Assembly: GCF_041886205.1 (NCBI RefSeq)
Contig: NZ_CP169029.1
Direction: 5' to 3' (one strand)
Length of the DNA: 64,000 nucleotides
Source of the DNA: Escherichia coli
GTDB lineage: Bacteria > Pseudomonadota > Gammaproteobacteria > Enterobacterales > Enterobacteriaceae
In this document: positions 34,091-64,000 of the stretch, piece by piece
How positions within the stretch are numbered: position 1 is the stretch's first letter
Layout of the letters: every line of letters begins with the position of its first letter
Position numbers and translations under genes: made by a program
The notes under the pieces: generated by a model
Seen by the model: the letters and a program-made list of their open reading frames with translations, nothing else
What the model was told of the DNA's origin: nothing
The model's database searches: none

Positions 34091-34769
34091 GCTAATGCTC
34101 CTTAATAAAAGCGTAATGGGATGTTAATGGAGATGAAAGCAGTGGATCTCATTGCCATCTGCATTTTCGCATAGCGTATATCGCTGGCTATGACTAATCA
34201 ATTAGTGAAAAATTTTTATTTAATCAGTTTTTGTAGATAAAATATTCCGTAACGGCTCGTTTTTTGTACATTGTGGATTTTTACATGCCGATATGATTTA
34301 TTTTTAATTAAATCAATTAGATATGGGCTTGCCTCTAATTTCACTAATGCAAGTTTGGGGGTGAGGTAACGCTATAAGCGTAGAGAATTCGGTGTATGTA
34401 GTGGCCGGGTCATTTTCAGCATTTTTTATGCCAGACAATGTACATTAACAGCAGAAAGCACCGGTGATGGATGTTTTCTTTTATTCTGTTATATTGCATT
34501 TTTATTCACTTTGGTTTTGTCAGGCTTGCGGAATTAGCGAGCAGAGAGCGCCGTTCTGTTCACCAATAATCTAAATTACTCATCAAAATGGCTAATATAT
34601 AATCTTGAAATTATTCTGAGAGTTTCAGAAAATAACAGCTGAAATAATCTCGCGCAGGACTGGCATACTAATTTTGTGACATATAAGGTACGCCACATCG
34701 ACATCACCAATCAAATACATACTCTTTTTTGTTTTGGTGCTCCAGCTGTTCCAGCACCATGTCCAAATG

Positions 34770-43155: not shown

Positions 43156-45285
43156 TCAATCAGTTGTGGAGAATCTTGAGGAACGAGAAACATGATCACT
43201 CCCTGAATGATTGATCTCTCTGATGTTGCTAGGTGAGAGGCAACCTCTCAACCTTCTTTTATTTATTATAACTAGTCCATCATGAGGAGAGTGATTAATG
43301 TTCACAGAATCCCCACGACTAAAGGCCAGAACGTTTTTAGTTGCAAATACACCCTCAAATGCGCTCCATATTCCTGCTTTATCTATATATAATGCGTGGA
43401 ATTCATTGTAGAGCTGCTGATAGGTAGAGCAACCTTTATTAAGCCACGCCTCACCGCCGACACGCGTCGACCCATCATCATTTTTAATTTCAGTCGTTGA
43501 TTTTAATACTTGGCCATCCCAGTAAACTAAAGGCCTGCTGAACGGGAGAGCGGCCATATATGCCATTGCTAATTGTTCATCTTGTTGATGGTTAAATAGA
43601 AAGTCATTGAAAAGATTGCCATTGTTAGGAAAATCGTGGTTAATGTTAATCAATATCCGTCTTTTTGATGGGATGCTTGAGATTGTTGAACCCGGTTTTG
43701 ATGCAAGGGTTTGGAGATCGCCACCAAATGAAAAAGCTTTTATCGTCTTCATGAGCAATGAAAAATCAATGGCGCTTAAATCATCTCTTTCATAAAGCAG
43801 CGATGACATTTGTTGTTCATCCAACTGACTAGTTACCAGATATTCCATGTAATTCATAACGGCTTTTTCATGATATTTTGGGTTAAATAAGTTAGTATTG
43901 TGTAATCGCTCATTATAATTTTTAAGCGGTGGGGTTATTGATCTTTCTATTTGTTCATGTTTTGAGTGTTTTGCTGCATCGTAACGTAAACCTCGTACGC
44001 CATATTTTCGCATTTCACGAACGTATTGATTTTGCAGCATAATAACCTGGTCACTTTTGGGGGTTGTTTTAGGCATTCCATTTAAACGCTTTTCTTTTAA
44101 TGCATAGAGGTTTTCCCATTCATCCTTAGAAATATTATCTTTACTTGCTTCGAAGTCTTTTGCAGTGAGATGTATATCTTCTGGATGGATTTGTTTACGT
44201 TCTTTTGTTACTGGATCTATAGTAAATGGAATCAAAACCTGACCTTGCCAATAGCCAGGGATACCACTTTCTATATCTTTACTGATCTTCGCTCGTATAT
44301 CAGTAGAGGGATAATCCAGGTCATTTTTACCACTACCCCCGATTCCCATAAAGTTAAAGGTATAATCAGGAATGATATCGATACCAAATTTTTTAGCATC
44401 TTTAACCAATGCGATAAAATCCTGCAAATCTCCCATTGGATTATGGATGGTACAAAGATCTTCGGGTTGATAAGCGTGAAACCAGTAACCTTTTTCTTCT
44501 TCGGGAGTTTCTGGTCCGTCGGCGCGGAAAGTTGTCACTGGAGGGATTTGTATATACCCATAATGGCAACGTGCAAACTCAGACATATTTTCCCTGATTT
44601 GCTGGTAGGTGGCATTAAAAGCATGAAGAATCGCTTCGCCAGGTTTTTTAGGGGTGATGATTTCACATTGTGATTTCTGAACAGCAGTAAGAGATTTACG
44701 CTCAAGTGTTTGCCGTAGATGTTCTGGATTGATTAATATTTTAAATGTTTCTTGCTGTCCGGAAGGTGACGTCACGTTAATATTATATACATCGGCTGCC
44801 AGCTCATAGTCAGGGATGTTAATAGCATATGCAACATATTTATCTTTTGGGGAGGGTTTTTCAGATATAATGTGGGTGAAATATTCAGCAGGACCATACT
44901 GGTGAACCCCCTTGTTATCTTCTCTTTCATTCATTGTATCTCTTTGATAAATCCATGTTTTTCCTTCTCCTATCCTGTCTGGCGCTGTAATGCTACGCTG
45001 TGCAGCTTTATTCAGTTCACGGTAAGTTGTATCTGGAAAAAGGGAAATTTTATAATCGTTTTTTAACAGATCATTAATGATTTTTTCTGCGTGAAAAGTT
45101 GATATAATTTCTCTGTCTTTTAAATCCTGAGGATAAACTCCACAAGCATTAATAATATTTGTTACACAGTTTAGATATTCTAATGTATTTAATTTGGAAT
45201 TTAGATCCCCGTCAGTAATGTTCCATGATAACAATGTGGGGGTGTCGATAGGTAAATTTCTTGGTCCTGGTTTTATAGAAAACAT
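43156..45285 (-). CDS. ygaQ: Alpha-amylase family (GH13-like) protein, probable intact form of ygaQ
   Basis: 709 aa AT-rich ORF; motif GVRGLRYDAAKH resembles GH13 conserved region II (GxRxDAxKH); adjacent to ileY as ygaQ is in E. coli; C-terminal ~40 codons may run into the anomalous block. Confidence 0.5.
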   Translation of the reverse strand: MFSIKPGPRNLPIDTPTLLSWNITDGDLNSKLNTLEYLNCVTNIINACGVYPQDLKDREIISTFHAEKIINDLLKNDYKISLFPDTTYRELNKAAQRSITAPDRIGEGKTWIYQRDTMNEREDNKGVHQYGPAEYFTHIISEKPSPKDKYVAYAINIPDYELAADVYNINVTSPSGQQETFKILINPEHLRQTLERKSLTAVQKSQCEIITPKKPGEAILHAFNATYQQIRENMSEFARCHYGYIQIPPVTTFRADGPETPEEEKGYWFHAYQPEDLCTIHNPMGDLQDFIALVKDAKKFGIDIIPDYTFNFMGIGGSGKNDLDYPSTDIRAKISKDIESGIPGYWQGQVLIPFTIDPVTKERKQIHPEDIHLTAKDFEASKDNISKDEWENLYALKEKRLNGMPKTTPKSDQVIMLQNQYVREMRKYGVRGLRYDAAKHSKHEQIERSITPPLKNYNERLHNTNLFNPKYHEKAVMNYMEYLVTSQLDEQQMSSLLYERDDLSAIDFSLLMKTIKAFSFGGDLQTLASKPGSTISSIPSKRRILININHDFPNNGNLFNDFLFNHQQDEQLAMAYMAALPFSRPLVYWDGQVLKSTTEIKNDDGSTRVGGEAWLNKGCSTYQQLYNEFHALYIDKAGIWSAFEGVFATKNVLAFSRGDSVNINHSPHDGLVIINKRRLRGCLSPSNIREINHSGSDHVSRSSRFSTTD

Positions 45286-45844: not shown

Positions 45845-45920
45845 GGCCCTTTAGCTCAGTGGTTAGAGCAGGCGACTCATAATCGCTTGGTCGCTGGTTC
45901 AAGTCCAGCAGGGGCCACCA
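45845..45920 (+). tRNA. ileY: tRNA-Ile2 (anticodon CAU, lysidine-modified type)
   Basis: 76 nt GGCCCTTTAGCTCAGTGGTTAGAGCAGGCGACTCATAATCGCTTGGTCGCTGGTTCAAGTCCAGCAGGGGCCACCA. Confidence 0.85.
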
Positions 45921-46036
45921 AATAAAACAAGGACTTAGACAGGAAGCTGGCTAAGTCCTTTTTGTTTTGTTTCAATCTGGGTGACGTAATGGGTGACGTA
46001 ACTCAACTATAGGTGCCGTAGTCAGGGAGATTTAGC

Positions 46037-49913: not shown

Positions 49914-51215
49914 TTACGGGGAAAACAGGGGGAAGGACGATTGCCACTCACCTTCCACTAATGCCCCTGATTCAAGCTCGAAGGGCACACACCAGAGCGA
50001 TAAATGTTTATCAAAATGGAACACTGGCAACGGAGTATCAAAAAACTGATGACGTGGATATATCAGCATCATATTCCCCTTCCCTTGCAGATATTTTTGC
50101 CCATAAGCGAACATCTGATACAGATCAGCCTGGTTAATTTCATACTTTCTCAGGCTGTTATCAGCTCGGCTGTCTAACAGCTTCCATTTGGCATCCAGTA
50201 CCATTACCTGCTCACCTGTGATGAGAAAGTCAGGTTTAAGCATGAACCATTGTTGAGGAGCCCTTTCGCCAGCAGGTACATGATCTAACAAATAATGACG
50301 TTTTGCCTGCTCAATAAGCTGATAATCCCTCAGCAAAGATAAAGCCAAACTGCGCCCCACCCAGCATTCATATAATTTTTCCATCGGGAACAACAGCGAG
50401 ATCCCCTGATGCAACCCATGCTGAAAATCTGGATTCAGTTTTTCCAGAATAAGTTGGCACCATGGCTTGATGGCACGATAAGCATAGAGATATTTACCGT
50501 TGCTCCATTGCGCCAGAGGCTGCGTTGTACTGCCACAAATTGGCTCTATACCGTCCAGTTGGTGGCTCAACGTGTTCGCCTGTCGCCAGCTCTGCCCCTC
50601 TTTGGTCATTTTAAGCACCCAATTCAGGGCCGTACGTAACAGACGGTTTTCAACTCGCTGAGGTGAAAACTCCGCATAACGCACATGAAAGCGAGCATCT
50701 CTACCAGGAGGCTGTCTCATTTGTGCCGTGATGTTCAACTGACCACGGATAAAAGCGCTGTGCTCATCCTCAACAAGGTGGTAGTCGAACCGCAACCCTT
50801 TGTGTACCAGTTCGGTAAGATGCCGCAAGAACTCGCTGAAAATCCACTCATGCATCGGCTGGTTGCTCCGCTGCAATGCAGCCTGATTAACTTCTCGGGG
50901 TGTAATCCCCAATGAAGCGCTGAGCATTCGACGTAAAAGCTGACGCAGGGGGATTATCTCAGTTGGCGCTTCAAATGTGGTTTTGGGCAGAATTTCAATT
51001 GACTCGCCATTCGGGGATTGTAGATAACCGACATAGCTTCCCAAACGCAAAAACCGCTTCCCTTCTCGGCTGAGAATTTGAGAGGTACCACTCCACTTTT
51101 GTTGCAATTGCTCAAGCCAGGAAAAGGTTGCCTCAGAGACAATTCCCAAATCCATACTGGCTGTTTGAGAACTATCACAAGTCAGCAGAGCATATTCCCG
51201 GACCTGGATCATCAT
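49914..51215 (-). CDS. mcrC: McrC-family nuclease subunit of a type IV (modification-dependent) restriction system
   Basis: 433 aa; PD-(D/E)xK-like VLDAKWK motif; 4-nt overlap with upstream McrB-like gene. Confidence 0.75.
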   Translation of the reverse strand: MMIQVREYALLTCDSSQTASMDLGIVSEATFSWLEQLQQKWSGTSQILSREGKRFLRLGSYVGYLQSPNGESIEILPKTTFEAPTEIIPLRQLLRRMLSASLGITPREVNQAALQRSNQPMHEWIFSEFLRHLTELVHKGLRFDYHLVEDEHSAFIRGQLNITAQMRQPPGRDARFHVRYAEFSPQRVENRLLRTALNWVLKMTKEGQSWRQANTLSHQLDGIEPICGSTTQPLAQWSNGKYLYAYRAIKPWCQLILEKLNPDFQHGLHQGISLLFPMEKLYECWVGRSLALSLLRDYQLIEQAKRHYLLDHVPAGERAPQQWFMLKPDFLITGEQVMVLDAKWKLLDSRADNSLRKYEINQADLYQMFAYGQKYLQGKGNMMLIYPRHQFFDTPLPVFHFDKHLSLWCVPFELESGALVEGEWQSSFPLFSP

Positions 51216-53194
51216 GTGACAATACCCTGATAAGCTTCTACCGACGCGAAAGCACGTTCATTGATGCGAAAACGCCTGTCAGACAAGCTATCCGCAATAT
51301 CTTTCGGGAATAGTTCAGAGAATGACGGTAATTGTGCTGACTGTTGCAACAGGATAAAACGGTTTTCTTTCGCTTTTACCGAATCATTAAGCACCCAACC
51401 AATGCGCTCATAATCATCAAAGAAATACTCTCTCAGTAATGGAATGATTTTGTTCTGGAAGATGCTGGCCAGACAGGCTTCGCGGTCGGCATTATTTTCT
51501 AATTTTTTTAGTGGCATAAAGTAAGCATGGCCAATCATATGTTCACTATCCAGCAGCGCTTCGATCCGCTGATTAATACGCGTTAACAACGTTTCGACAT
51601 CAACACCGAACGCAGTGACCCCAGCTAACAGCTCCGGTCGTGCGGGCATTTCGGTAAAGCTAAAGCGTCGTCTTAGCGCCAAGTCCATTTGGATGAGTGA
51701 TTTATCCGCAGTATTCATCGTCCCAATGACATAAACATTTTGCGGTACTGAGAATGCTTGCTTTGAATAAGGGAGCATCAGCGACCGCTCATCATCGGCC
51801 CCTTGACGTTTGTCCGGCTCAAGAAGAGTAATAAGCTCACCAAAGATACGTGCTATATTACCGCGGTTGATTTCATCTATTATCAGTACATGTGGTAGAT
51901 CCTGACTATCGGCATTCTCAACAGGAGCCAGCAACTGAGTTAATTTTTCACGATCAATCGTCGTATCCTGCAACTCATATAGGGTCATCTGAGATAGTGA
52001 CTTGATGAAAATTTGCTCTTTAGGAAGGCTTGGGGTGTATGTTCTTAACCATTTAACTGAACGCATTTGATGGTAATACTCACGTTCATCATTGGGTAAA
52101 TAACTATACTCACCTGTAATCTCAGCTATTGCACGGAACTTATGATTTCCATCAGAGACGACGACTAAATCGCCATTCTTAATAATATTTTTAAAGGTAT
52201 TCACGGCAACAGCCATATAATTACTGGTGCCTTCCAATGACTGTTTTTCTGATGCAATCCGAGCTTTGACTGACTCATAGGTAGAGCAGTTACTAAAATC
52301 GATATCTTCTCCCCAACCTAGCAGGACATAATTGTTTGCCAGGCAGTCCTCATACACATCCTCTTCTCCGCCCATGGTATTACCCAGAGACATCTTCCAG
52401 ATCCGCCGACCTTTGAGTGAGATAGATTGTGTTGCACTCCCCTGAACTTTAACCCTGGCATTCAGGCACAGCTGTTTAAAAATACCATCCACAACTTCGT
52501 AGCGAAGCGCGCCCGATTTTTCATCAGTAGTTGCGCGAATCCCTTCGATAAAATCTTCATAGGAGAAGCTCTGATGGAAGGTGGTAAACATAATGCGCTG
52601 CTTTTCTACCAACGCCTTATAGCGTTCATTTACCAACTCCCGTAAGTCATTGCCATGATGTTCGAGCGTAGCCTGTTGGTACCACGTATTATCGGCAATT
52701 TTGACCGCCATTTCGGTGGTACTGTAGGTTTTACCCGTGCCGGGTGGTCCAAAGAGAATTTGGTTTAAGGGATACATTAACGATTGTTCCTTATTTTCGT
52801 TGTCTCTTTTTAGTCTGGGTTGGGTAGTTATAGATGGTTTACCACCCAGCAAAGCCACCAGCGTCTGCAACGCTTCAACGGATTCAACATCAGCCGCGAA
52901 ACCATATTGGGATGTACCGTTATCTTTCGGATAACGGCGGTAGCTGGTGCTTTTTACTTTTTCCCAAAGGCAGTGGATACCCGAAATGCGATCAATTTCC
53001 GCTTTTACGGCAAGGGTTTCAGGTGCAAGAACCAATGGACTCTTTTTAACCACGCCGTCCCGGCTGCGTTTGACATACAGATACTTTCCATTCCCGAGCG
53101 CATGTTCGGATGCATAGCTTGGCTCGAATTTTCCCGCCTCAAGCCGGTAACCCAATTCATTCAACGCCTGGTATATCTCGAAAGAATTCAGCAT
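51212..53194 (-). CDS. mcrB: McrB-family AAA+ GTPase with atypical N-terminal domain and ~190-aa insertion between Walker A and Walker B
   Basis: 660 aa; Walker A GPPGTGKT, McrB-type Walker B LIIDEINRGNIARIFGEL, FHQSFSYEDFIEG; inserted segment RRIWKMSLG...GDLVVVSDGNHKFRAIAEITGEY...RSVKWL. Confidence 0.75.
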   Translation of the reverse strand: MLNSFEIYQALNELGYRLEAGKFEPSYASEHALGNGKYLYVKRSRDGVVKKSPLVLAPETLAVKAEIDRISGIHCLWEKVKSTSYRRYPKDNGTSQYGFAADVESVEALQTLVALLGGKPSITTQPRLKRDNENKEQSLMYPLNQILFGPPGTGKTYSTTEMAVKIADNTWYQQATLEHHGNDLRELVNERYKALVEKQRIMFTTFHQSFSYEDFIEGIRATTDEKSGALRYEVVDGIFKQLCLNARVKVQGSATQSISLKGRRIWKMSLGNTMGGEEDVYEDCLANNYVLLGWGEDIDFSNCSTYESVKARIASEKQSLEGTSNYMAVAVNTFKNIIKNGDLVVVSDGNHKFRAIAEITGEYSYLPNDEREYYHQMRSVKWLRTYTPSLPKEQIFIKSLSQMTLYELQDTTIDREKLTQLLAPVENADSQDLPHVLIIDEINRGNIARIFGELITLLEPDKRQGADDERSLMLPYSKQAFSVPQNVYVIGTMNTADKSLIQMDLALRRRFSFTEMPARPELLAGVTAFGVDVETLLTRINQRIEALLDSEHMIGHAYFMPLKKLENNADREACLASIFQNKIIPLLREYFFDDYERIGWVLNDSVKAKENRFILLQQSAQLPSFSELFPKDIADSLSDRRFRINERAFASVEAYQGIVT

Positions 53195-53223
53195 TTCCTA
53201 CACCACTCCTTGATGAAAAAGCG

Positions 53224-56200
53224 TTAAGCCCCTTTCAACATATCAAACACCACGCGGGCAAAGCCCTTCGCCAGTTCAGGATTAGAGAGGTATTGCACCA
53301 TCATCTCCTGCTGGGCGTCGTTGCTGTCCATCACGGCATCATCAATGGCTTTCGGGAAATCGCCCAGCATCGCCTGCTCACGCGTATTGTTCGCAATCTG
53401 GGTCATCACCGCCTGGTTTTCTGACAGCTTGTCGCGCACCGCGAAGGCATAATTGATCATGTCTTTATCGGTCAGATTATCGGTGACGAACAGCTCGTTC
53501 AGGCGCGCCAGGATATTCGACAGAAACTCTTCTTTCTTGTCTTTCGGCTTCGCCGTACCGACATCATTCCCCGGTGTGATTTTGTATTCTGCCGCATCTT
53601 CCTGCAGCTTCAGATGCTGTTCGTGGAGTTTCGACAGGCGATAATGGCTCATCTCCACGTTGCTTAAATCAATCTCATCTTCTTCGATACGCTGTTCATG
53701 CAGTAACGGGCGCAGGTGGCGGGCAAATAGGCTCAGTTTTTCCAGGTTCTTGTCGTCGTAATCGACGATTTGCGACATAAACTCGTAAAAGCGGACAAAG
53801 CTGCCGAGGTCTTTCTTGAAGATATCCAGCTTACTTTTTTCTTTCTCGCACTCTTTGAAGCTGTTTTCCGCATTGGTGATCAGCACAACATCGCCGGTCT
53901 TCTTAGTACGTTCGAAGATCGCTTTGGCCTTTACATACTCGTCAATCGCCGAGGTGTAACGCTGTTTCCAGCGCTGCACCGCTGGTTTGCAGATATTACT
54001 AATGGCCGCGTTGGATTTGTTTTTGCTGAAGAACGCTTCGCAGAACTGCTCCACTTCGTTCCACAGGAAAATACCGCTGGTACGCAGCTTTTCAAAGAGC
54101 TCAAAGACCTGTTGCGGGTCGCTGACATCCGTCAGTTCTGCTGTCTGGTAGTACGGCTGGAAAGCCCCCAAAATCTCGTCGGGCTCGTTGTAGAAATCGA
54201 GCACAAAGGTGCCTGACTGCGCCTTCCCCGGATAGGTACGGTTCAGGCGTGACAGCGTCTGTACACACTCCACGCCGCCAAGCTTTTTATCCACATACAT
54301 GGCACACAGCTTGGGTTGGTCAAAACCGGTCTGGAATTTGTTGGCCACCAGCATCACCTGGTAGTCGTCGGTATCAAACGCTTTGCGCATATCCCGGCCT
54401 TTCAGGCCTGGGTTCATATTGATTTCGGTGAACTTCTGGTTAAGCAATGCAAGGCTATTGTGGTCATCTTCATGGAACTCAACTTCACCGGAGAACGCCA
54501 CCATTGCGCTGATCTTGTCGTATTTTTGCTCGGCGATGTATTTATCGAATGCCAGCTTATAGCGCACCGCTGCTTTACGCGAACTGGTCACCACCATCGC
54601 TTTCGCCTGACCAGCCAGTAAGTGCATCACATGCTTGCGGAAGTGCTCAACAATCACCTTCACTTTCTGCGACACGTTATGATCGTGCAGCGATACCCAC
54701 TGGTTGAGTTTGATCTTGGCTTTCTTGCTGTCTACTTCCCGGTCAGGATCGTCCAGCTTTTGCAGCAGCTTGTACGCCACCTTGTAGTTGGTGTAGTTCT
54801 TCAGCACATCAAGTATGAAGCCTTCTTCGATGGCCTGACGCATTGAGTAAACGTGAAACGCTTCCGGTTTGTTCGTTTTCGACGCCGGTTCCTGCGGATT
54901 AGGACGACGGCCAAACAGCTCCAGCGTTTTGGCTTTCGGCGTGGCGGTAAAGGCGTAATAGTTGAGATTGTTGCTGCCTTTACGTGCGGCGACGGTGGCA
55001 TCCAGAATATCTTCTGAAGACATCTCCACATCGTCATCCGCTTCTTCGGTCATAAGCACTTCTTTCAGCTGACGCGCCGTAGAACCACTCTGCGAGGAGT
55101 GCGCTTCATCGGCAATCACCGCGTATTTGCGCTGCTTGAGGCTGACGCTGTTTTCAATCGCCTTCAGGACAAACGGGAACGTCTGGATAGTGACGATAAT
55201 GATCGGCTGCGAGTTTTCCAGCGCGCTGGCCAGCTTCTCCGATTTAGAACCGTCGCCTTCTTTGTTATTGATCCGCCCGACCACGCCATCCTGATGCTCA
55301 AACTGATAGATGGTGTCCTGCAGCTGATCGTCAAGCACGGTGCGGTCCGTCACCACAATCACCGAATGGAACTGCTTCTCGCCATTTTCATCATACAGGC
55401 GGGAAAGCTGATGGGCCGTCCAGGCGATAGAGTTAGATTTGCCCGACCCGGCACTGTGCTGAATCAGGTATTTATTGCCGGTGCCTTCCACTGTGGCGGC
55501 GGTGATCAGTTTATTCACCACATCCCACTGGTGATAGCGTGGGAAAATCAGGCTCTCACTTTTGTACTTCAGGCCAATGGCATCTTCTTTTTCTACGATT
55601 TGCAGATGCACGAAGCTCGCGAGAATTTTCAGCAGATTGTCCGGCAGTAGCACCTCATTCCACAGGTAGCTGGTGGCGTAGTCGTTGGCATCTTCCGGGA
55701 TATCGTTCCCCGCACCGCCGTCATGGGTGCCTTTGTTAAACGGCAGGAAGAAGGTTTTATCGCCCTCGAGTTTGGTCGCCATAAACACTTCGTACTGGCT
55801 GACGGCAAAGTGCACCAGCGCGCCGCGTTTAAAGGTCAGCAGCGGCTCGGGTTTATTAGTGCCTGGGTCCTTTGGCAAACGCGTTTTCTTATATTGCGTA
55901 ATGGCGTTTTGCACCGTCTGCTTAAATTCAGACTTCAGTTCCAGGGTCGCTATCGGCAGGCCATTAACGAACAATACCAGGTCGATACGCCATTTCTTCG
56001 CTTTTATACCGGTATCTTCAAATGCGGCGTTCGATGCATGCGGGCTGTAAACCAGCTCCGGCACGATGCGGCAGATATTCTGTTTATAACGAGCCAGTGT
56101 TTCCGGATTGAGGTTATGTTCCGGCTTAAACTGGCACAGAGAAAAACGCGCGTTATGGCTTTTGATACCATGTCGCAGCACGCCTAAAGTGCCATAGGTG

Positions 56201-56472
56201 CGCGAAAGCATATCAGTAGCGTTGATGTCCGCTTTTTTCAGCTGCGCCACCAGCGCATCGAGGAAATGACGTTCGGTATCGGTAGGGTAAATTTTGGCAA
56301 ACTTCTCCCACTCCTGCGGCTGTGTGGTCTGCACAAAGGTCAGCACATCCTGGGAATACAGCGCACGTTCGCGATCATAGCCGTCAGTTTTGCCACAAAT
56401 CCAGCCTTTTGCTTTCATCTGAGCAATCATTTCGTTCTGGAAGATAAGCTCTTTGGTGCTGTCCATGCTCAT
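53224..56472 (-). CDS. hsdR: Type I restriction enzyme R subunit (HsdR)
   Basis: 1082 aa; helicase motif I SAGSGKS, DEAH-like ADEAHSSQ; 4-nt overlap with hsdS. Confidence 0.9.
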   Translation of the reverse strand: MSMDSTKELIFQNEMIAQMKAKGWICGKTDGYDRERALYSQDVLTFVQTTQPQEWEKFAKIYPTDTERHFLDALVAQLKKADINATDMLSRTYGTLGVLRHGIKSHNARFSLCQFKPEHNLNPETLARYKQNICRIVPELVYSPHASNAAFEDTGIKAKKWRIDLVLFVNGLPIATLELKSEFKQTVQNAITQYKKTRLPKDPGTNKPEPLLTFKRGALVHFAVSQYEVFMATKLEGDKTFFLPFNKGTHDGGAGNDIPEDANDYATSYLWNEVLLPDNLLKILASFVHLQIVEKEDAIGLKYKSESLIFPRYHQWDVVNKLITAATVEGTGNKYLIQHSAGSGKSNSIAWTAHQLSRLYDENGEKQFHSVIVVTDRTVLDDQLQDTIYQFEHQDGVVGRINNKEGDGSKSEKLASALENSQPIIIVTIQTFPFVLKAIENSVSLKQRKYAVIADEAHSSQSGSTARQLKEVLMTEEADDDVEMSSEDILDATVAARKGSNNLNYYAFTATPKAKTLELFGRRPNPQEPASKTNKPEAFHVYSMRQAIEEGFILDVLKNYTNYKVAYKLLQKLDDPDREVDSKKAKIKLNQWVSLHDHNVSQKVKVIVEHFRKHVMHLLAGQAKAMVVTSSRKAAVRYKLAFDKYIAEQKYDKISAMVAFSGEVEFHEDDHNSLALLNQKFTEINMNPGLKGRDMRKAFDTDDYQVMLVANKFQTGFDQPKLCAMYVDKKLGGVECVQTLSRLNRTYPGKAQSGTFVLDFYNEPDEILGAFQPYYQTAELTDVSDPQQVFELFEKLRTSGIFLWNEVEQFCEAFFSKNKSNAAISNICKPAVQRWKQRYTSAIDEYVKAKAIFERTKKTGDVVLITNAENSFKECEKEKSKLDIFKKDLGSFVRFYEFMSQIVDYDDKNLEKLSLFARHLRPLLHEQRIEEDEIDLSNVEMSHYRLSKLHEQHLKLQEDAAEYKITPGNDVGTAKPKDKKEEFLSNILARLNELFVTDNLTDKDMINYAFAVRDKLSENQAVMTQIANNTREQAMLGDFPKAIDDAVMDSNDAQQEMMVQYLSNPELAKGFARVVFDMLKGA

Positions 56473-57791
56473 GCGGTGGCCTCCTGTGGCTCCTCAGCGT
56501 CCTGCGTGTCAGGTGCTACCCAATCACGGACGTCGATTTTTCCGGTGACGGCAGCGGAGATCAGGGCGGTACGGCGTTCCTGGAGAATTTGAATAGTCTG
56601 CTCGACCATTTCTTGAGTTATTTGTATTTTGTCTATCTTTTCCAGTACTTTTTTTGCCAGATAAACCTGATCATCAAAAGGAATATCTCTCACGTAAAAA
56701 TTACTAATTTGCTCTGGACTAATATGCGGCACACTAACACCAGTCAAGTCTATTTCAGCATATTCTCTGAATTCATTGCTACTAAGACATAATTTAATAA
56801 ATGGTTGATATGATTTTATATTTGACCTTATCCTTGCAACTCGCTGCAATAAGAGGCAAGGTAAATCCTGCTCTTTAATTTCTGAAACCCTTGCTCCAGA
56901 ACTAATCCATGGTCTATCCATACCAAAAACAATATCGCCAGCCGCTAATAAATAATCACTGAGCCTATCGAGTGTTCTAACATCCCAATATACAACGTCA
57001 TCCCATTTTATGCTGTCAACACCGACATTAACCCCTCGTAAAAGAGGAATACTATTATCAGGTGAAAATTTAAATTTTGTACTTGAAAATGGATAGCCAG
57101 TTTGAATACTAACTAAGTTTTTTAGCTTAGTTTTCCTCTCATTACTACGTATACTGGCGACACTTGAGATCACGGCCTGACGCTTTTCTTTAAGTAGTTC
57201 AATTAGTTGCTGTTGCTTCTCGATCAGGTTATCGATTTTTGCAGTTTCGTGATCGAGGAAACTGTATATTTTTTCCTGCTCAGTCTTGTCTGGAAGCAGC
57301 AGCTCAATATTTCTAAATTCATCAGGATCCAGATCCCATTGATTGACTCGTATCCCCTTGGAGCGGCTCAGATATTGAGTAACGTAAATCGGGTTGCGAA
57401 GTAAATAATGCACATACCTTGGATGTGCCAGTTCAAAAAGGACATTGTTGGGTTTATAGACAAAATATGCCGGACTAACTATCCCTTCATACTCTGAAAT
57501 TGCGATTGAACCTTGCCAGGCTTTCATCTTATTCATAACCAAATCATTTGGCTCAACCAATTGATAGGGGGACAAATCCTCTGAAGGCTTATTATTGTTA
57601 TCATCTCTGCTTGATTTTGGTATAACACCATAGTCCCGATATACGGAAAGCAATTCTTTCTCTGTATATCCGGTCCGCTTGATCCTGGAAAACAATCTGG
57701 ATATGGATACGGTTTTCCAGTGATTCGGAATCTCCCCCAACCACTCAACCCCAGAATCCTTATACTCCGGATACATCTTATACTTCGCCAT
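56469..57791 (-). CDS. hsdS: Type I restriction-modification specificity subunit (HsdS)
   Basis: 440 aa with two TRD-like halves separated by a central conserved region; start overlaps hsdM stop by 1 nt. Confidence 0.85.
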   Translation of the reverse strand: MAKYKMYPEYKDSGVEWLGEIPNHWKTVSISRLFSRIKRTGYTEKELLSVYRDYGVIPKSSRDDNNNKPSEDLSPYQLVEPNDLVMNKMKAWQGSIAISEYEGIVSPAYFVYKPNNVLFELAHPRYVHYLLRNPIYVTQYLSRSKGIRVNQWDLDPDEFRNIELLLPDKTEQEKIYSFLDHETAKIDNLIEKQQQLIELLKEKRQAVISSVASIRSNERKTKLKNLVSIQTGYPFSSTKFKFSPDNSIPLLRGVNVGVDSIKWDDVVYWDVRTLDRLSDYLLAAGDIVFGMDRPWISSGARVSEIKEQDLPCLLLQRVARIRSNIKSYQPFIKLCLSSNEFREYAEIDLTGVSVPHISPEQISNFYVRDIPFDDQVYLAKKVLEKIDKIQITQEMVEQTIQILQERRTALISAAVTGKIDVRDWVAPDTQDAEEPQEATA

Positions 57792-60175
57792 CAGGAATGT
57801 ACCTCCCGCAGCAGCTTCATAATCTCGGTACTGACTGCATCCAGATCGGCATCAATCTCTTCCAGTGGGCGCGGCGGCTGATAGACGTAGAAATGGCGGT
57901 TAAACGGAATCTCATAACCGACAATTCCCACCTCACCATCTTTCGCATCACGCTTATCGGCGTTGATCCACGCATCATTTACATGCGGCAGCACTTCTGC
58001 TTTGAAGTAGTTTTCGATCAGGTCGCTGGTCGACATTGCCGGGTTCAGCGGCACGTTTTCGTTATCGCGCAGCTCGCCGTCCTGTTCGAACTCAACAACC
58101 TTGCCTTTGTACTCAAACGCACCGTACAGCGGCTGAGCGGCTTCTTTCAGCACCTTCTTCACCACCGGCTCGGCATCCGGGTTTTTCGTGGTAATGGCAT
58201 CGATAAACTGCTTGTTCTCTTTCGCATCCAGCTTCACGCCAGCCGTTTTGATGGCCCCTTTCAGGGTCAGTTGGAACTGATTGAAGTCATTGCTCACCCG
58301 CGTTTTGCCACCCGCCTGCGCACCCAATACCACCTGAATCTGCTGTGCTTTTTCCATGAACTCGCGCTGTGCCAGCCACAATTTGCTGTCGAGCAGGTCT
58401 TTAATCTGCTTCTCTTTCAGCTCTGCAAATTCGGCTTTGATGATGGCGCGCGCTTCGGCTTCCAGTTCGGAGAAATCACCATAGCTGTCCTCCCTCCACT
58501 GGGATGCGAACTCTTCATACAGGCGTTCCATTGGCGCGTTAAACGGCTTCGGCGCAAAGCGCAGAGTCGCAATCGCTTCATCAGTCACCTGTGCAGATAA
58601 CCGCAGCGGGCGCTCAATGGTCAGGCGGCGATAGCCAAAGTCGGTGCTGTTAAAGATTTTGCTGGCGAAGGTTTTCGGAGCTTCGGTTTTGGCCATGGCA
58701 GGCTGACGGCCACGGTTGGATTTTTGCTCGGCGGCTTTTTCCAGACCCAGTTCTTCCAGGGCTGTGACATCCACCACCTGAAAATCACCGAAGGTCTGCG
58801 TGATCAGTTTGATATCGTCTTCGCCCATCAGGTTGCGCTTGGAACCCAGCGATTTACGCATTTTGCCGCACAGGTTAGTGCCATCAATCAGCTGTACTTT
58901 TCCTTTACGCTCAGGCGCTTTCTTGTTGGAGAGGATCCAGACGTAGGTGGCAATACCGGTGTTGTAGAACATATCTGTTGGCAGCGCGACGATGCCTTCC
59001 AGCAAATCGGCTTCCAGAATGTAGCGACGGATTTCGCTCTCACCGCTGCCCGCACCACCAGTAAACAGTGGAGAGCCGTTAAGGATAATCCCGATACGTC
59101 CGCCGTTGCTCACGGTGCCATCCACATTGTGGTTGTCGCGCATTTTGCTGATCAGGTGCATCAGGAACAGCAGCGAGCCGTCGGAAACACGCGGCAGGCC
59201 CGGGCCAAAGCGACCGTTAAAGCCCTTTTGCGTATGTTCGTCGTTAATCTCGCCCTCAATCTTCTTCCAGTCCACGCCAAACGGTGGGTTAGACAGCATG
59301 TAGTCGAATTGATCCAGCGGTAACTGGTCGTTAGAGAGGGTGTTACCCAGCTTAATGCGGCTGACGTCCTGACCTTTGATCAGCATGTCGGCTTTACAGA
59401 TAGCGTAGGATTCCGGATTCAGCTCCTGACCAAAAGCGCGCATCACCGCGTTAGGGTTCAGCTCGTGCACATATTCCATGCCCGAAGAGAGGAAACCACC
59501 CGTCCCGGCCGTCGGGTCATAAATGGTGCGGATGATACCAGGCTGCGTCAGGGCTTCATCATCTTCCATAAACACCAGTGAAGTGGTCAGACGCACGATA
59601 TCGCGTGGGGTGAAGTGCTCACCGGCGGTCTCGTTAGATCTTTCCGCGAAACGACGGATAAGTTCTTCAAACACCAGGCCCATCTCATAGTTGGAAATCG
59701 CTTTCGGGCTGAGATCGGTGGTGGCGAATTTCTTCACTACTTTGAACAGCAAGTTGGCGTCTTCCAGCAGGCCGACGAACTCACTGAATTTAAAATGCTC
59801 GAAGATTTCACGCGCATCGGGCGAGAACGACTGGACGTAATTCTCCAGGTTGGCTTTGATGTCGTTCTGCCCCATCTTGCCAAGATCCATCTTCGAGGTG
59901 TTGAAGAAGGAAAGCTCGCTGGCGCGCAGCAGAAACTTCTCTTTGGCATCTTCCGGCAGCGTGCTGGTTTTTAATTCATCATATTTCGCCACCACCGCAT
60001 CTTTGGTCTCCGCCAACACACACTCAAGACGGCGCAGCAGCGTAAAGGGCAGGATCACGCGCCCGTACTGAGACTGTTTGAAATCACCGCGCAGTAGATC
60101 GGCCACCGACCATATAAACGCAGCCGTTTGAGAAAAGTTAGTGTTAGTCATAAGCGACACCCAAAAAAATGGCAT
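57791..60175 (-). CDS. hsdM: Type I restriction-modification N6-adenine DNA methyltransferase (HsdM), long form with ~300-aa C-terminal extension
   Basis: 794 aa; AdoMet motif DPTAGTGGF and catalytic NPPF; alternative start at ATG 60151 (MTNTNF) because a TATAAT lies immediately upstream of 60175. Confidence 0.85.
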
Positions 60176-60358
60176 AAAAAAGTGGCAAGATTATACCCCA
60201 TCAGGCATAAGATGCTTTGACTTATAACGCATCAGTTTGAAACACAATGGTGATGGGGGTCACAGGGGCTGACATGTACTTTTAAGATTAAAAAGCATTA
60301 ACATCTACTTTTGAAGAAAACAGAAAAAAACAATCACAAACCTTTAAAAACAAAAACT

Positions 60359-63300
60359 ATGCCAATTATTAATAAAAAGTATCAAGAGCTTCAGTTAACA
60401 GATGAGTACATTACCGATCCACTGCTCATGGCCCTAGCCTGGAAGAAAAGCCATCACTACATACGTACCACAAATTGGTATGCTGACAACTTTGAACTAG
60501 ACCTGTCGGCTTTGGACCTAATGCAGCACTGTAAAGATTGGGTCAAGAGAATGCAGGACAAAAAAGAATTTAAATTTTCAGAGCTACAACTTGTTCCTGT
60601 ACCAAAAGCCTGTAAATGGGAGTTTAAGACTGTCGAAAATAAGGTTCTATGGCAACCTTGTGATGAAAAAGAACTTACCCTACGCCCCCTTGCCCATATA
60701 CCCATAGCTGAACAAACCATCATGACATTAGTCATGATGTGCCTAGCCAATACAATAGAAACCAAGCAAGGAAACCCAGACACCAGCTATGACATCGTCC
60801 ACCAGAAAGGTATCGTCAATTACGGAAATAGACTTTATTGTCAGTATATTGACGATAAAGCAGAGCACAGCTTCGGTGCAACAGTGACATATAGTAAATA
60901 CTTCACTGATTATCGGAAATTTTTAAATAGGCCTTATCATTTTGCGTCAAAAGCGCAAGGTGAAATTTCGCCGGACGAAGCCGTTTACATCATAGAACTA
61001 GATCTTGCGAAGTTTTTCGATTTAGTAAACAGGAAGACTCTAATTCAAAAGATAAAAAACCATATCAGTGAGTCAATAAACAATAAAGAAAACCCACTCG
61101 CCAATCATTTATTTAAATGTTTTGCAAACTGGGACTGGACTGCATCTAGCATAAAAAATTATGACATATGCAAGTCAGACGAAGTAACAGAAATACCAAA
61201 AGGCATCCCTCAAGGATTGGTTGCAGCAGGGTTTCTATCAAATATTTACTTACTTGAATTAGATCAATTCTTGCATAATAAAATTAACACAGACATAACT
61301 GATGACATTAAATTTGTTGATTACTGTCGATATGTCGATGACATGCGATTTGTGGTTAAGGTTAAAAAATCAAAAAATAATAATACCGCATTCATAAATG
61401 ATGTAATAACCAATCTTCTTAAAAATGAGATAGATAATCTTGGACTGATAATTAATCCTAAAAAAACAAAAGTAGAAATTTTTAGAGGCAAATCCGCAGG
61501 CATCTCGCGTAGCTTGGAAAACATCCAGACCAGATTAAGCGGCCCAATATCAATGGATAGCGCCAACGAACAACTTGGGCATCTTGAGTCATTATTAAGT
61601 CTGACAAAAACCGATTTTGAACCACCGAAAAATGGTAAATCAAATAGATTAGCTGAGATTGAAAAAGACCGTTTCGATGTCAGGGAGGACACTCTTAAGC
61701 GCTTTTCTGCCAATAAAATCAGTAAGATACTAAAAGAGTTAAGACATTTCATCTCGCAGGATATAGATACTGATGGGGAGGTTATTGCCGGGGAATGGGA
61801 TTATCTGCAAGAACGTTTGGCACGGCGTTTTATTGTCTGTTGGAGCCATGACCCGTCACTGGCACTGCTACTCAAGAAAGGGCTGGAACTTTTCCCTGAT
61901 CCTAAGCTATTAGACCCTATACTTGAACAGCTTTGCTCACTCATTGAAAGCGATAATGAAAAACAAAGTGCAGTAGCTACTTATTGCCTTGCTGAAATAT
62001 TTCGACATTCAGCAATGACTATTCATAAAAAAGACACCTATGCATTCCCTGCACAAGCCAATGTGGATGGGTACTTTGAAAAAATACAACATTGCGCCGC
62101 GACATTCATTAATAAGCGCAGCGCCTCTGACAACGAAACTTGGAACCTGTTAATTAATCAGGCTAGTTTTCTGTTGCTTGTGCGTTTAGATAATACATTA
62201 GAAAAAAATGGCACTGATGCCAGGCATGATCTTATCTTAAAACTGGCATCAGGCTTTAGAACAATTACACTTCCCACTAAAATGGATAGCAAGACTATAG
62301 CCTCATGTATTTTGTTGGCTAGTCAATTAGTTAAAGATAACAAACCATTTATTCGCTCCTGCGCTTCTTTGTGCGAAAGAATTTATGACAAAGAACACGT
62401 CATAAAATTGAAGAAAATAGTTAGCATAATATCACATCAAAACTTATCATTGTTTAAATCCTTAGTTTATCATTCACGACCTTTACAACAGAAGTGGCTA
62501 AACTCAGACTCCGTGAAAATAATAATTAATGAATGCCATATAGATATACAACCTTTGGCGACTTCTTTAGGCATGATAAAAAGTAGTCACTCATTACTTA
62601 GAATCATATCAAGACCTGATAACCCATTTGCCAATGAGATAATGGCATTAAAACTGATGCAAGCCCTTTTATTGGACAGGATTGTTTGCCTGGATAATAA
62701 AAAAGATTATCAAATAAGTGTAGCAAACACCAAAGTGACGTTTCATAACTACTCCAACCCTCCAACATCGAATGTCTTCGATGCAGGAATGGATATGGAT
62801 GCAAAATTATTCAAATCATCGGGATGGGTCGATTCTATTTTCACGGATGATGCAGACACTCAAATATTGTATAGAGTTGCCATGTGCATCCGTTCAGTAC
62901 TACTCGGCAAACAAGACTGGACAGATTTTGGTCAAGCAATTTCCCCCAAACAGGGTTATCGGGGTATTAAAACTAGTAGAGACAAACGTCAATTGGGGAT
63001 GATGACAACACCTGAGTCCATTGCCGGTGAGAACTCTCAGGTTTCTGGTTGGCTTACCACACTCTTATCCAAGTTGCTTGCCTGGCCGGGAATTTCAGTG
63101 GGTGATAATGGATATCAATGGCCAGCAATTTTTACAGTAGATGCTGTCAGAAAACTAGTTGATGCTCGGCTGAGTAAACTTAAGCAGGATTACTGCAAAC
63201 TATCAGGAACTCCGGGACTTACAGAAAAAATACAGTTCAACTGGTCTGACTCGAAAAAAGCCCTAACAGTTGCTATGGTCCAGTCAAAACTGCCTGCAAC

Positions 63301-64000
63301 GAAAGATTTTGTCAGCCATGGACTTCTTTTAAACTCCGCAAAGTATAGAGTGATTCATCGCAGACATGTTGCTGAAGTGGCTGATTTAGTTGTAAAACAC
63401 ACGCTTGCACAAAAAACAACTCAACGAACTCATGGTGAAAAAATAGAGAACATTGATTTAATAGTATGGCCTGAGCTCGCTGTACATAGTGACGATTTGG
63501 ATGTACTCATCGCCTTATCTAGAAAAACGAATGCAATCATATACTCGGGCCTGACATTTATTGAGCAACCTGGAATCAAAGGACCAAATAATTGTGCCGT
63601 TTGGATTGTCCCACCTAAAAGCAATAGCAGCCAGAAAGAAATGATAAGACTTCAAGGCAAGCATAATATGATGGAAGATGAGAAAGGCCGGGTTGAACCC
63701 TGGAGACCATACCAATTGATGCTTGAACTTGTTCACCCCCAATTTACTGATAAAAAAGGATTTGTTCTCACAGGCTCCATTTGTTATGACGCAACCGACA
63801 TCGCGCTAAGTGCAGATCTCAGGGATAAATCAAATGCTTATCTTGTAGCAGCATTAAACAGGGATGTTAATACATTCGATTCCATGGTTGAAGCACTGCA
63901 TTATCATATGTACCAGCATGTTGTGCTCGTTAACTCAGGGGAATTCGGAGGATCTTACGCTAAAGCACCTTACAAGGAGCCGTTTAATCGTTTGATTGCT
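60359..64000 (+). CDS. Defence-associated reverse transcriptase fused to a C-terminal nitrilase (CN-hydrolase) domain, DRT1/UG1-like; 3' end beyond window
   Basis: At least 1214 codons with no stop; RT motifs LDLAKFFD, GIPQGLVAAGFLSNIY, YVDD at 61331-61342, GLIINPKKT; long helical middle; nitrilase-like WPE (Glu 63473-63475), GKH, ICYD (Cys 63782-63784); not in ORF track because open-ended. Confidence 0.65.
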   Translation, partial: MPIINKKYQELQLTDEYITDPLLMALAWKKSHHYIRTTNWYADNFELDLSALDLMQHCKDWVKRMQDKKEFKFSELQLVPVPKACKWEFKTVENKVLWQPCDEKELTLRPLAHIPIAEQTIMTLVMMCLANTIETKQGNPDTSYDIVHQKGIVNYGNRLYCQYIDDKAEHSFGATVTYSKYFTDYRKFLNRPYHFASKAQGEISPDEAVYIIELDLAKFFDLVNRKTLIQKIKNHISESINNKENPLANHLFKCFANWDWTASSIKNYDICKSDEVTEIPKGIPQGLVAAGFLSNIYLLELDQFLHNKINTDITDDIKFVDYCRYVDDMRFVVKVKKSKNNNTAFINDVITNLLKNEIDNLGLIINPKKTKVEIFRGKSAGISRSLENIQTRLSGPISMDSANEQLGHLESLLSLTKTDFEPPKNGKSNRLAEIEKDRFDVREDTLKRFSANKISKILKELRHFISQDIDTDGEVIAGEWDYLQERLARRFIVCWSHDPSLALLLKKGLELFPDPKLLDPILEQLCSLIESDNEKQSAVATYCLAEIFRHSAMTIHKKDTYAFPAQANVDGYFEKIQHCAATFINKRSASDNETWNLLINQASFLLLVRLDNTLEKNGTDARHDLILKLASGFRTITLPTKMDSKTIASCILLASQLVKDNKPFIRSCASLCERIYDKEHVIKLKKIVSIISHQNLSLFKSLVYHSRPLQQKWLNSDSVKIIINECHIDIQPLATSLGMIKSSHSLLRIISRPDNPFANEIMALKLMQALLLDRIVCLDNKKDYQISVANTKVTFHNYSNPPTSNVFDAGMDMDAKLFKSSGWVDSIFTDDADTQILYRVAMCIRSVLLGKQDWTDFGQAISPKQGYRGIKTSRDKRQLGMMTTPESIAGENSQVSGWLTTLLSKLLAWPGISVGDNGYQWPAIFTVDAVRKLVDARLSKLKQDYCKLSGTPGLTEKIQFNWSDSKKALTVAMVQSKLPATKDFVSHGLLLNSAKYRVIHRRHVAEVADLVVKHTLAQKTTQRTHGEKIENIDLIVWPELAVHSDDLDVLIALSRKTNAIIYSGLTFIEQPGIKGPNNCAVWIVPPKSNSSQKEMIRLQGKHNMMEDEKGRVEPWRPYQLMLELVHPQFTDKKGFVLTGSICYDATDIALSADLRDKSNAYLVAALNRDVNTFDSMVEALHYHMYQHVVLVNSGEFGGSYAKAPYKEPFNRLIA

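Follow-up and report, generated by a model that had tools for sequence, protein, structure and literature searches.

DRT type 1 (defence-associated reverse transcriptase 1, DRT1), a name given by Gao et al. 2020 as cited in Mestre et al. 2022 (PMC9226505), denotes the UG1 group of the class 3 UG/Abi reverse transcriptases (RTs), proteins of 1200–1300 amino acids (aa) with a C-terminal C-N hydrolase (PMC9226505). Only one member has been characterised, the 1229-residue protein of PDB entry 9YFD (Neville et al. 2026, Nat Struct Mol Biol 33:953, PMC13275509). Its DNA synthesis is template-free with RNase A present, its RT-dead mutant is monomeric, and the substitutions S402A, D324N/D325N, C1116A, K1219A and A1223F each abolish defence (PMC13275509). 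Here we compare with it an open reading frame (ORF) at the 3′ end of a 64,000-nucleotide (nt) stretch of Escherichia coli DNA (contig NZ_CP169029.1 of assembly GCF_041886205.1), the whole of which we call the window, and we are nearly certain from its sequence that this ORF encodes a full member of the DRT1 family.

Related systems provide further points of reference. The UG5/DRT5 systems also carry out template-free, protein-primed synthesis (PMC13275509), and UG5-large needs a transmembrane partner (PMC9226505). The priming serine of the characterised protein, S402, is highly conserved across DRT1 and is reported as not conserved in other class 3 DRTs (PMC13275509), and the hydrolases of class 3 branch as a clade of their own, separate from other nitrilases (Mestre et al. 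2022, PMC9226505). A first interpretation of the window from its letters alone (the sequence-only reading) had called the mechanism and any template RNA of such RT-nitrilase fusions poorly understood, a view that is out of date, since Neville et al. 2026 (PMC13275509) shows template-free, protein-primed synthesis; moreover, the D324N/D325N and C1116A mutants of that study cover part of the list of mutants the same reading had proposed. The family, its domain logic and its mechanism are thus already published, and proteins identical to the one described here are in NCBI.

The gene and its two ends

60359–64000, plus strand: DRT1 (Drt1a/UG1) gene, codons 1–1214 of 1258 (open frame, PADLOC, 9YFD match)

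From the ATG at 60359 to the final base of the window the frame translates for 1214 codons without a stop, in agreement with the open-ended ORF of at least 1214 codons claimed at the outset. A frame of this length in DNA of 37–42% G+C (the flanking E. coli core has about 52%) excludes a chance origin. It is open-ended because the window ends there, and the missing 3′ end, the recovery of which had been suggested as a check, could be read from sequences identical to it. A Citrobacter protein (P0272, “RNA-directed DNA polymerase” in NCBI) is 100% identical across all 1214 residues, and an E. coli protein fragment (P0276) is 100% identical over aa 842–1214. The contig of this fragment (L015; E. 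coli, GCA_020212505.1) equals window positions 62855–64000 at 100% and then extends further, so that the stitched sequence gives a DRT1 of 1258 aa ending ...FRRDNVGKSMQSGLDKKTAPAGIIM, which equals the Citrobacter protein read from its ATG. The final 44 codons and the stop fall outside the window, the stop lying 135 nt beyond position 64000. Neither a frameshift nor a stop, either of which the sequence-only reading had named as telling against itself, occurs in the 1214 codons of the window, and the stitched frame is intact to codon 1258. As a single chain of 1258 aa the polypeptide lies within the 1200–1300 aa range of UG1. Directly 3′ of the stop codon the stitched sequence has a hairpin with a 13-bp stem followed by a T-run; it was read by eye, the automated terminator scan having missed it because its loop is 10 nt. 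With an upstream region to itself and this hairpin behind its stop, DRT1 stands as a self-contained unit.

The NCBI records of the identical protein take as their start a TTG that lies 16 codons further upstream, which gives 1274 aa (extension at window positions 60311–60358). We rejected this start. In Hafnia, compensating 1-nt indels put the extension out of frame and it meets a TAA ahead of the ATG, and the N-termini of the family align to the ATG, which together place the start at 60359. The TTG-started extension is probably an annotation artefact.

Assignment to the DRT1 family

The PADLOC model PDLC03745 (Drt1a) matches the protein with E=0 and 1337.5 bits, aligning aa 4–1214 to profile positions 4–1139 of 1176; the second Drt1a model, PDLC02171, gives 549 bits, and RTasNitrilase gives 347 bits over aa 745–1214. 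The next different PADLOC family, RT_UG5-nitrilase, scores 128.8 bits over aa 25–378 only, on a profile of 907 positions, and PADLOC thus returns no full-length UG5/DRT5 match, the RT region alone being covered. Searching the PDB sequences with the full protein returns only one real match among solved structures, 9YFD (“Defense-associated reverse transcriptase 1”; 481 bits, split between aa 1–560 and aa 742–1213). No NCBIfam model reaches its curated cut-off, Drt3a included, and all RT models fall 4- to 6-fold below, for example:

retron_St85: score 46.6, cut-off 235
group_II_RT_mat: score 61.4, cut-off 300
Drt2: score 68.1, cut-off 390
AbiA: score 48.8, cut-off 250

With the Drt1a and 9YFD matches and the catalytic residues all in place (see below), the original call of a DRT type 1/UG1 RT-nitrilase stands. 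From N- to C-terminus the chain comprises an RT, a loop, a middle region of alpha-helical type and a domain of nitrilase fold.

Conservation was assessed within the family. Searched exhaustively, 1.84 billion cluster representatives yielded 287 relatives at E<=1e-30, from which we built a set of 109 sequences, made up of 105 full-length representatives, the window protein and the three full-length relatives nearest to it. Positions of 9YFD were mapped by placing fragments of its sequence, taken from pairwise alignments, into the 109-sequence alignment. The best match belongs to a 90%-identity cluster of 159 members from Enterobacter, Citrobacter, Morganella and E. coli.

The reverse transcriptase and a candidate priming serine

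60995–61342, plus strand: RT catalytic core (Pfam RVT_1, E 1.1e-13; coordinates checked)
60995–61021, plus strand: motif A, ELD215LAKFFD, with D215
61199–61219, plus strand: motif B, PQG
61331–61342, plus strand: motif C, Y325-V-D327-D328 (YVDD)
61538–61540, plus strand: S394 in the L-S-G-P motif, putative protein-priming serine (corresponding to 9YFD S402; conserved in 108 of 109)

The RT core motifs that had been noticed near the N-terminus, YVDD among them (aa 325–328), are present. Conservation in the family alignment is close to complete: D215, D327 and D328 are found in all 109 sequences and Y325 in 108. D327 and D328 map to D324 and D325 of 9YFD.

The loop that follows the RT domain (aa 370–480) contains a single near-invariant serine, S394 (108/109). 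Within the part disordered in 9YFD the only near-invariant hydroxyl residues are S394, in an S-G-P/G motif, and T445, which sits within a VREDT-LKRF helix motif. Only P0182, which represents the 9YFD clade, departs from S394, and it has a 2-residue insertion there, as does 9YFD itself (E-V-G-T-S402-S-I-P-E-R). Since S402 is reported to be highly conserved across DRT1 (PMC13275509) and S394 is the only near-invariant serine of the loop, we infer that S394 is the equivalent of the priming serine S402 across the 2-residue indel.

The middle region, the nitrilase domain and the C-terminal lid

61796–63235, plus strand: middle region, about aa 480–959, taken as the DRT1 alpha-helical repeat domain (Drt1a profile; boundaries approximate)
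63236–64000, plus strand: nitrilase-superfamily effector domain, aa ~960–1214 within the window (9YFD alignment, fold model)
63473–63475, plus strand: E1039, in WPE (63467–63475), aligned to 9YFD E1017
63659–63661, plus strand: K1101, in GKH (63656–63664), aligned to 9YFD K1077
63680–63682, plus strand: E1108, aligned to 9YFD E1084
63782–63784, plus strand: C1142, in ICYD (63779–63790), aligned to 9YFD C1116

The name of the alpha-helical repeat domain follows PMC13275509. The three nitrilase signatures reported earlier (the Glu of WPE, the Lys of GKH and the Cys of ICYD) all lie where they had been placed, and with E1108 they make up a tetrad that is conserved in 109 (E1039), 109 (K1101), 105 (E1108) and 108 (C1142) of the 109 sequences. 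In the characterised protein, defence is lost when the counterparts of these residues or of D327 and D328 are mutated (PMC13275509).

Profile searches were proposed in the sequence-only reading, and they gave a divided answer: RVT_1 (E 1.1e-13) and Drt1a (E=0) matched, whereas Pfam CN_hydrolase (PF00795) had no match at E<=10, either with aa 15–1214, for which RVT_1 alone was reported, or with the nitrilase sub-alignment. Among 24 relatives, four match CN_hydrolase at E<=0.1, the best at 1.6e-3. Taken literally, the lack of a CN-hydrolase profile match had been held to count against the fusion; for Pfam that lack is real, but it is overridden by evidence at the level of structure. The miss fits the position of the class 3 hydrolases apart from other nitrilases (PMC9226505). 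The C-terminus aligns to the nitrilase domain of 9YFD with E 3.6e-54, and a profile of the domain searched against the PDB sequences has 9YFD as its only match (residues 945–1228, 390 bits), followed at E 0.12 by 5KHA, an NAD+ synthetase that contains a CN-hydrolase. As sequence profiles reach only 9YFD, the link to the nitrilases had to rest on the fold. We modelled the C-terminal ~300 aa with AlphaFold2 on a 24-sequence alignment headed by a 97% relative (P0001), so that the tail was included. The structure prediction that had been suggested gave a confident model (predicted local distance difference test, pLDDT, 91; predicted template modelling score, pTM, 0.91), for which Foldseek finds 135 matches in the PDB at E<=0.001, with aliphatic amidases, formamidases, Nit2/Nit3 and further nitrilase-superfamily enzymes at the top (E ~3e-12, probability 1.0, TM 0.55–0.66). 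By this model, the C-terminal domain belongs to the nitrilase superfamily at the level of the predicted fold.

Beyond the end of the window, the 100%-identical continuation carries the K-x-x-P-A-G lid motif as K1250-T-A-P-A1254-G, in a tail reading ...DKKTAPAGIIM. These columns are conserved in 105–106 of 108 representatives. The numbering of the P0182 tail, from the closest relative of 9YFD, fits the published Y1215, K1219, A1223 and H1229 exactly, and thus K1250 and A1254 correspond to K1219 and A1223, the two lid positions at which substitution (K1219A, A1223F) abolishes defence in the characterised protein (PMC13275509). With S394 taken as the counterpart of S402, every residue proven essential in the characterised DRT1 is conserved here.

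Proposed mechanism

We consider it likely that the protein works as described by Neville et al. 2026, through template-free synthesis, protein-primed adducts and a dormant nitrilase filament. DRT1 would then be an abortive-infection anti-phage system in a single polypeptide, the RT domain of which makes short (~17–30 nt), A-rich, semirandom single-stranded DNA (ssDNA), with no template and with the protein's own serine, S394, as primer. The covalent DNA adducts would drive the formation of tetramers via the nitrilase domains, tetramers being needed for nitrilase competence, and the tetramers would stack into filaments. In the filament the C-terminal tail (K1250-x-x-P-A1254-G) would swap between protomers and close the nitrilase site of the neighbour, keeping it dormant. 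Phage replication functions at mid-infection would lift this block, and for T4 the 5′–3′ ssDNA helicase Dda would be necessary though not sufficient. Once released, the nitrilase, with C1142 as its nucleophile, would act on an essential metabolite bearing an amide or amine, and the infection would abort. Neither an RNA template nor a partner gene would be required. The position of the gene in a defence island (see below) is consistent with an anti-phage role for this copy.

Several observations weigh against so direct a transfer of the published mechanism. Identity to 9YFD, the only characterised DRT1, is about 32–35%, and aa 561–741 have no pairwise alignment to it. HMMER and MAFFT both put S402 one to two columns off S394, owing to the 2-residue insertion in the 9YFD clade. 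The last 44 codons, which include the lid, are borrowed from 100%-identical sequences elsewhere. As for expression, a simple scan of the plus strand upstream of DRT1 found no sigma-70 consensus promoter, and its A-rich leader sequence contains no obvious Shine-Dalgarno.

Alternative explanations

The alternative that survives best, though we think it unlikely, is that DRT1 needs a partner, whether a Drt1b-like membrane protein, a small ORF that lies downstream or some coupling with the adjacent restriction-modification (R-M) and McrBC operon. About 18% of drt1 genes (33 of 175 in UG1) adjoin a gene for a transmembrane protein, which may be essential there (PMC9226505). The small ORF, of 58 aa (MKKLVPPYQVTPAQIYRSVASSTAIETGKPVQEIERQLKR...), starts ~113 nt 3′ of DRT1, between the terminator hairpin and the integrase gene, and recurs, conserved, in E. 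coli, in Citrobacter, in Hafnia and in Logan contigs; its positions are:

L015: 1394–1570 (~250–430 nt past the end of the window)
L001: from 13890
L008: 9891–10067
L011: 13938–14114

The spacer between hsdM and DRT1 is likewise 97% conserved across the same four sources, as coupling to the operon might lead one to expect. Yet the downstream ORF, in its 58- or its 107-aa form, has no PADLOC or PHROG match and no transmembrane or other hydrophobic segment in its conserved part, and the 13-bp-stem hairpin with its T-run separates it from DRT1. The 107-aa form was considered as a Drt1b and rejected, only its first ~55 aa being conserved and the remainder running antisense to the integrase. With hsdM upstream and an ORF without a transmembrane segment downstream, no Drt1b is adjacent, which makes this a single-gene variant of DRT1, and the characterised DRT1 also defends as a single gene (PMC13275509). 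Homologues from Pantoea (74% identical) and Vibrio (53%) are solitary, without an R-M system, an integrase or such a small ORF; the linkage to R-M is therefore a property of the island and not of the family.

It is far less probable that the protein is a template-dependent RT that copies a non-coding RNA (ncRNA), as do retrons, DRT2 and DRT9. Such an RNA would be looked for in the divergent spacer:

60152–60358: hsdM–DRT1 divergent intergenic region, 207 bp, with an A-rich leader (from the sequence)

The sequence-only reading had the gene diverging from a type I R-M/McrBC operon across a shared region of 183 bp. The divergence is confirmed and the length is not: 183 bp (60176–60358) holds only if the longest hsdM ORF is taken, whereas all gene calls give a HsdM of 786 aa that starts at the ATG at 60151, 8 codons after the start of that ORF, and the PADLOC HsdM alignment begins at its residue 9. 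The start is most probably this ATG and the spacer 207 bp. The unusual conservation of this region, and the use of ncRNAs by class 2 UG/Abi systems (PMC13275509), are what an ncRNA template has in its favour. Against it, Rfam at its gathering threshold has nothing near DRT1, the 183-nt spacer folds no better than its shuffles (z = -0.27), and the only inverted repeat in the spacer is broken in Hafnia without compensation; the NCBIfam models for retrons, Drt2 and group II introns, too, stay far under their cut-offs. As far as these scans of the sequence can tell, there is no sign of an ncRNA partner at DRT1.

We give just as little credence to the idea that this copy is decaying or inactive, a pseudogene in the making carried along by the island. 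It draws on the fact that the 3′ end is not visible in the window, and on the rarity of the gene: megablast and blastn searches with the gene found no DRT1-like DNA in 5,426 complete E. coli genomes, and so no other complete genome of the species carries it. The only one of these genomes with the island, that of E. coli GDSC2227PM (NZ_CP135595.1; L005/L006), has lost DRT1 to IS1, the 99.8% identity ending at window position 60369, 11 nt into DRT1 (about codon 4), where an IS1A follows. But the frame is intact over 1214 codons, and over 1258 when stitched, and all key catalytic and structural residues are kept. Twelve contigs carry the same allele (that of P0272) at full length; four of them, the Citrobacter loci L011–L014, were examined. 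Outside a recombination patch, moreover, the ratio of non-synonymous to synonymous change (dN/dS) against the 97% allele (L001/P0001) is about 0.1.

The patch itself spans window positions 60959–61534 (codons 201–392) and holds 25 of the 37 aa differences and ~59 of the 104 nt differences from the 97% allele. Diversifying selection was considered for this cluster of mismatches and rejected, since dS is raised as well: it is 0.31 in the tract, where dN/dS is 0.20, and 0.03–0.06 in the flanks, which indicates a recombination patch from another allele. The window’s version of these codons does not differ from that of the Citrobacter allele P0272. Some of the positions changed in the tract (e.g. 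S338) fall in a segment that aligns to the inter-tetramer contact of 9YFD at 332–336.

Finally, that the protein belongs to a different RT lineage (UG5/UG29 RT-nitrilase, retron, group II intron maturase or AbiA) has next to no chance of being right, for the weak matches of its RT domain to many RT families stand against 1337 bits over the full length for Drt1a, against 129 bits in the RT region only for RT_UG5-nitrilase and against the shortfall of every NCBIfam RT model.

The defence island and its surroundings

45845–45920, plus strand: tRNA-Ile(CAU) gene, ileY-like (ARAGORN, Rfam; tRNA-Ile in RefSeq)
45874–45923, plus strand: attL core, the 3′ 50 nt of the tRNA (50-bp repeat)
49914–51215, minus strand: mcrC
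51212–53194, minus strand: mcrB-like AAA GTPase
53224–56472, minus strand: hsdR
56469–57791, minus strand: hsdS
57791–60151, minus strand: hsdM

The five operon genes were named from NCBIfam and PADLOC, with further backing from the RefSeq annotation of the 99.8%-identical locus of E. coli GDSC2227PM. Between tRNA-Ile and mcrC lie small island genes, including a helix-turn-helix regulator and a YagK/YfjJ-domain protein. The 50-bp repeat of attL recurs just past the integrase, as attR, in L004, L011, L014 and L015. On the 3′ side of DRT1, L015 and four Citrobacter genomes have the 58-aa ORF, a minus-strand gene for a P4-type integrase of 435 aa and the 50-bp attR, and nothing else separates DRT1 from the end, in keeping with the initial description of the gene as standing at the edge of the island. 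The order is thus McrBC, type I R-M, DRT1, small ORF, integrase and attR, in an integrative island of ~20.1 kb, with the 3′ 50 nt of tRNA-Ile(CAU) as its target and DRT1 as its final cargo gene.

The Citrobacter loci L011–L014 match window positions 50311–64000 at 99.96–99.98% identity over 13,690 nt, far above what is expected of two genera, which indicates recent horizontal transfer. Close variants of the island are found in Enterobacter, Morganella and Hafnia. In GDSC2227PM the integrase end of the island is lost together with DRT1, and a second IS1A truncates a 709-aa ORF across the tRNA.

Within the operon, hsdS positions 56588–57740 are the only part for which the Logan relatives give no alignment, appearing as a gap between two BLAST segments. 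HsdS is 440 aa long in the window and in Citrobacter, 433 aa in L001–L003 and 454 aa in Hafnia. Judged by these sequences, the target-recognition domains of hsdS are exchanged between relatives.

Two observations concern DNA outside the island. The 709-aa ORF (window positions 43156–45285, minus strand, G+C 0.39) lies immediately upstream of tRNA-Ile and has no PHROG match; its copy in GDSC2227PM is annotated as a truncated hypothetical protein. Between the core genes (alaE side) and this ORF, positions ~34663–43100 form 8.4 kb of eukaryote-like composition, with an observed/expected ratio of 0.36–0.85 for CpG (1.2–1.4 in the core) and of 1.3–1.55 for TG/CA, 2.9 CTAG per kb against 0.13, a (CA)n microsatellite near 34895, and a longest stop-to-stop frame of 192 aa, near that of shuffled sequence. 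Megablast against the 5,426 complete E. coli genomes, blastn against plasmids and Rfam gave no match for it, and it has no tandem repeats. This segment has the look of a chimera, a contaminant or an insertion of foreign DNA and lies outside the DRT1 finding. The window is otherwise E. coli chromosome, with a norR-srl-recA region that is 100% identical to many strains.

Significance and comparison with known systems

As a discovery the gene carries little weight, the family having been catalogued since 2020–2022, detected by PADLOC at E=0 and given a published mechanism in 2026. Its interest lies in its host: a DRT1 found naturally in E. coli, from a sub-clade distant from the solved one, is a possible native-host model for two questions, the substrate of the nitrilase and the factors other than Dda that release the filament. 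Its native upstream region and its terminator are both at hand, and conservation singles out S394, D327/D328, C1142, K1250 and A1254 as testable residues of the clade. Putting these strands together, we would suggest, as a doubtful proposition, that this Enterobacterales clade, with its L-S-G-P motif, unaligned middle domain and 29 additional residues, might have a different phage trigger or nitrilase substrate, and that the strict linkage to R-M/McrBC through a 97%-conserved spacer, on an island that moves between Citrobacter, Enterobacter, Hafnia and E. coli, might be a sign of co-regulation or of layered defence and not mere co-carriage, with a DRT1 in its native host, E. coli.

Compared with 9YFD, which is characterised by experiment where the window protein is known from sequence alone, the two have in common the RT, the disordered priming loop, the alpha-helical domain and the nitrilase, as well as YVDD, the E-K-E-C tetrad, a conserved loop serine and the K-x-x-P-A-G lid, and both are single-gene systems with no ncRNA. 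They differ in that the window protein is best matched by the PADLOC sub-model PDLC03745 (1337 bits) and not PDLC02171 (549 bits), in the priming motif (L-S-G-P here, G-T-S-S-I-P in 9YFD, with a 2-residue indel), and in length, the window protein being 29 residues longer with aa 561–741 unaligned. The protein resembles the UG1 group (PMC9226505) in its size, in its combination of an RT with a C-terminal C-N hydrolase and in its location in a defence island, and it resembles the majority of that group in lacking the transmembrane partner that 33 of the 175 members have beside them.

More distant systems share parts of this design. UG5/DRT5 also associates an RT with a nitrilase domain, but its similarity to the window protein is confined to the RT region (129 bits). 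Neville et al. draw an analogy to retrons, where the effector stays dormant, held in a filament by DNA that the RT has made, until a phage infects; unlike retrons, DRT1 has no ncRNA template and no multicopy single-stranded DNA (msDNA), its untemplated DNA is held covalently on the protein, and RT and effector form one polypeptide. With amidases of the nitrilase superfamily, such as the Geobacillus pallidus amidase 2PLQ and H. pylori AmiF, the C-terminal domain shares a predicted fold and the E-K-E-C tetrad, but the identity is 9–17%, Pfam CN_hydrolase misses the domain, and unlike those enzymes it is fused to an RT and would be regulated by a swapped C-terminal lid.

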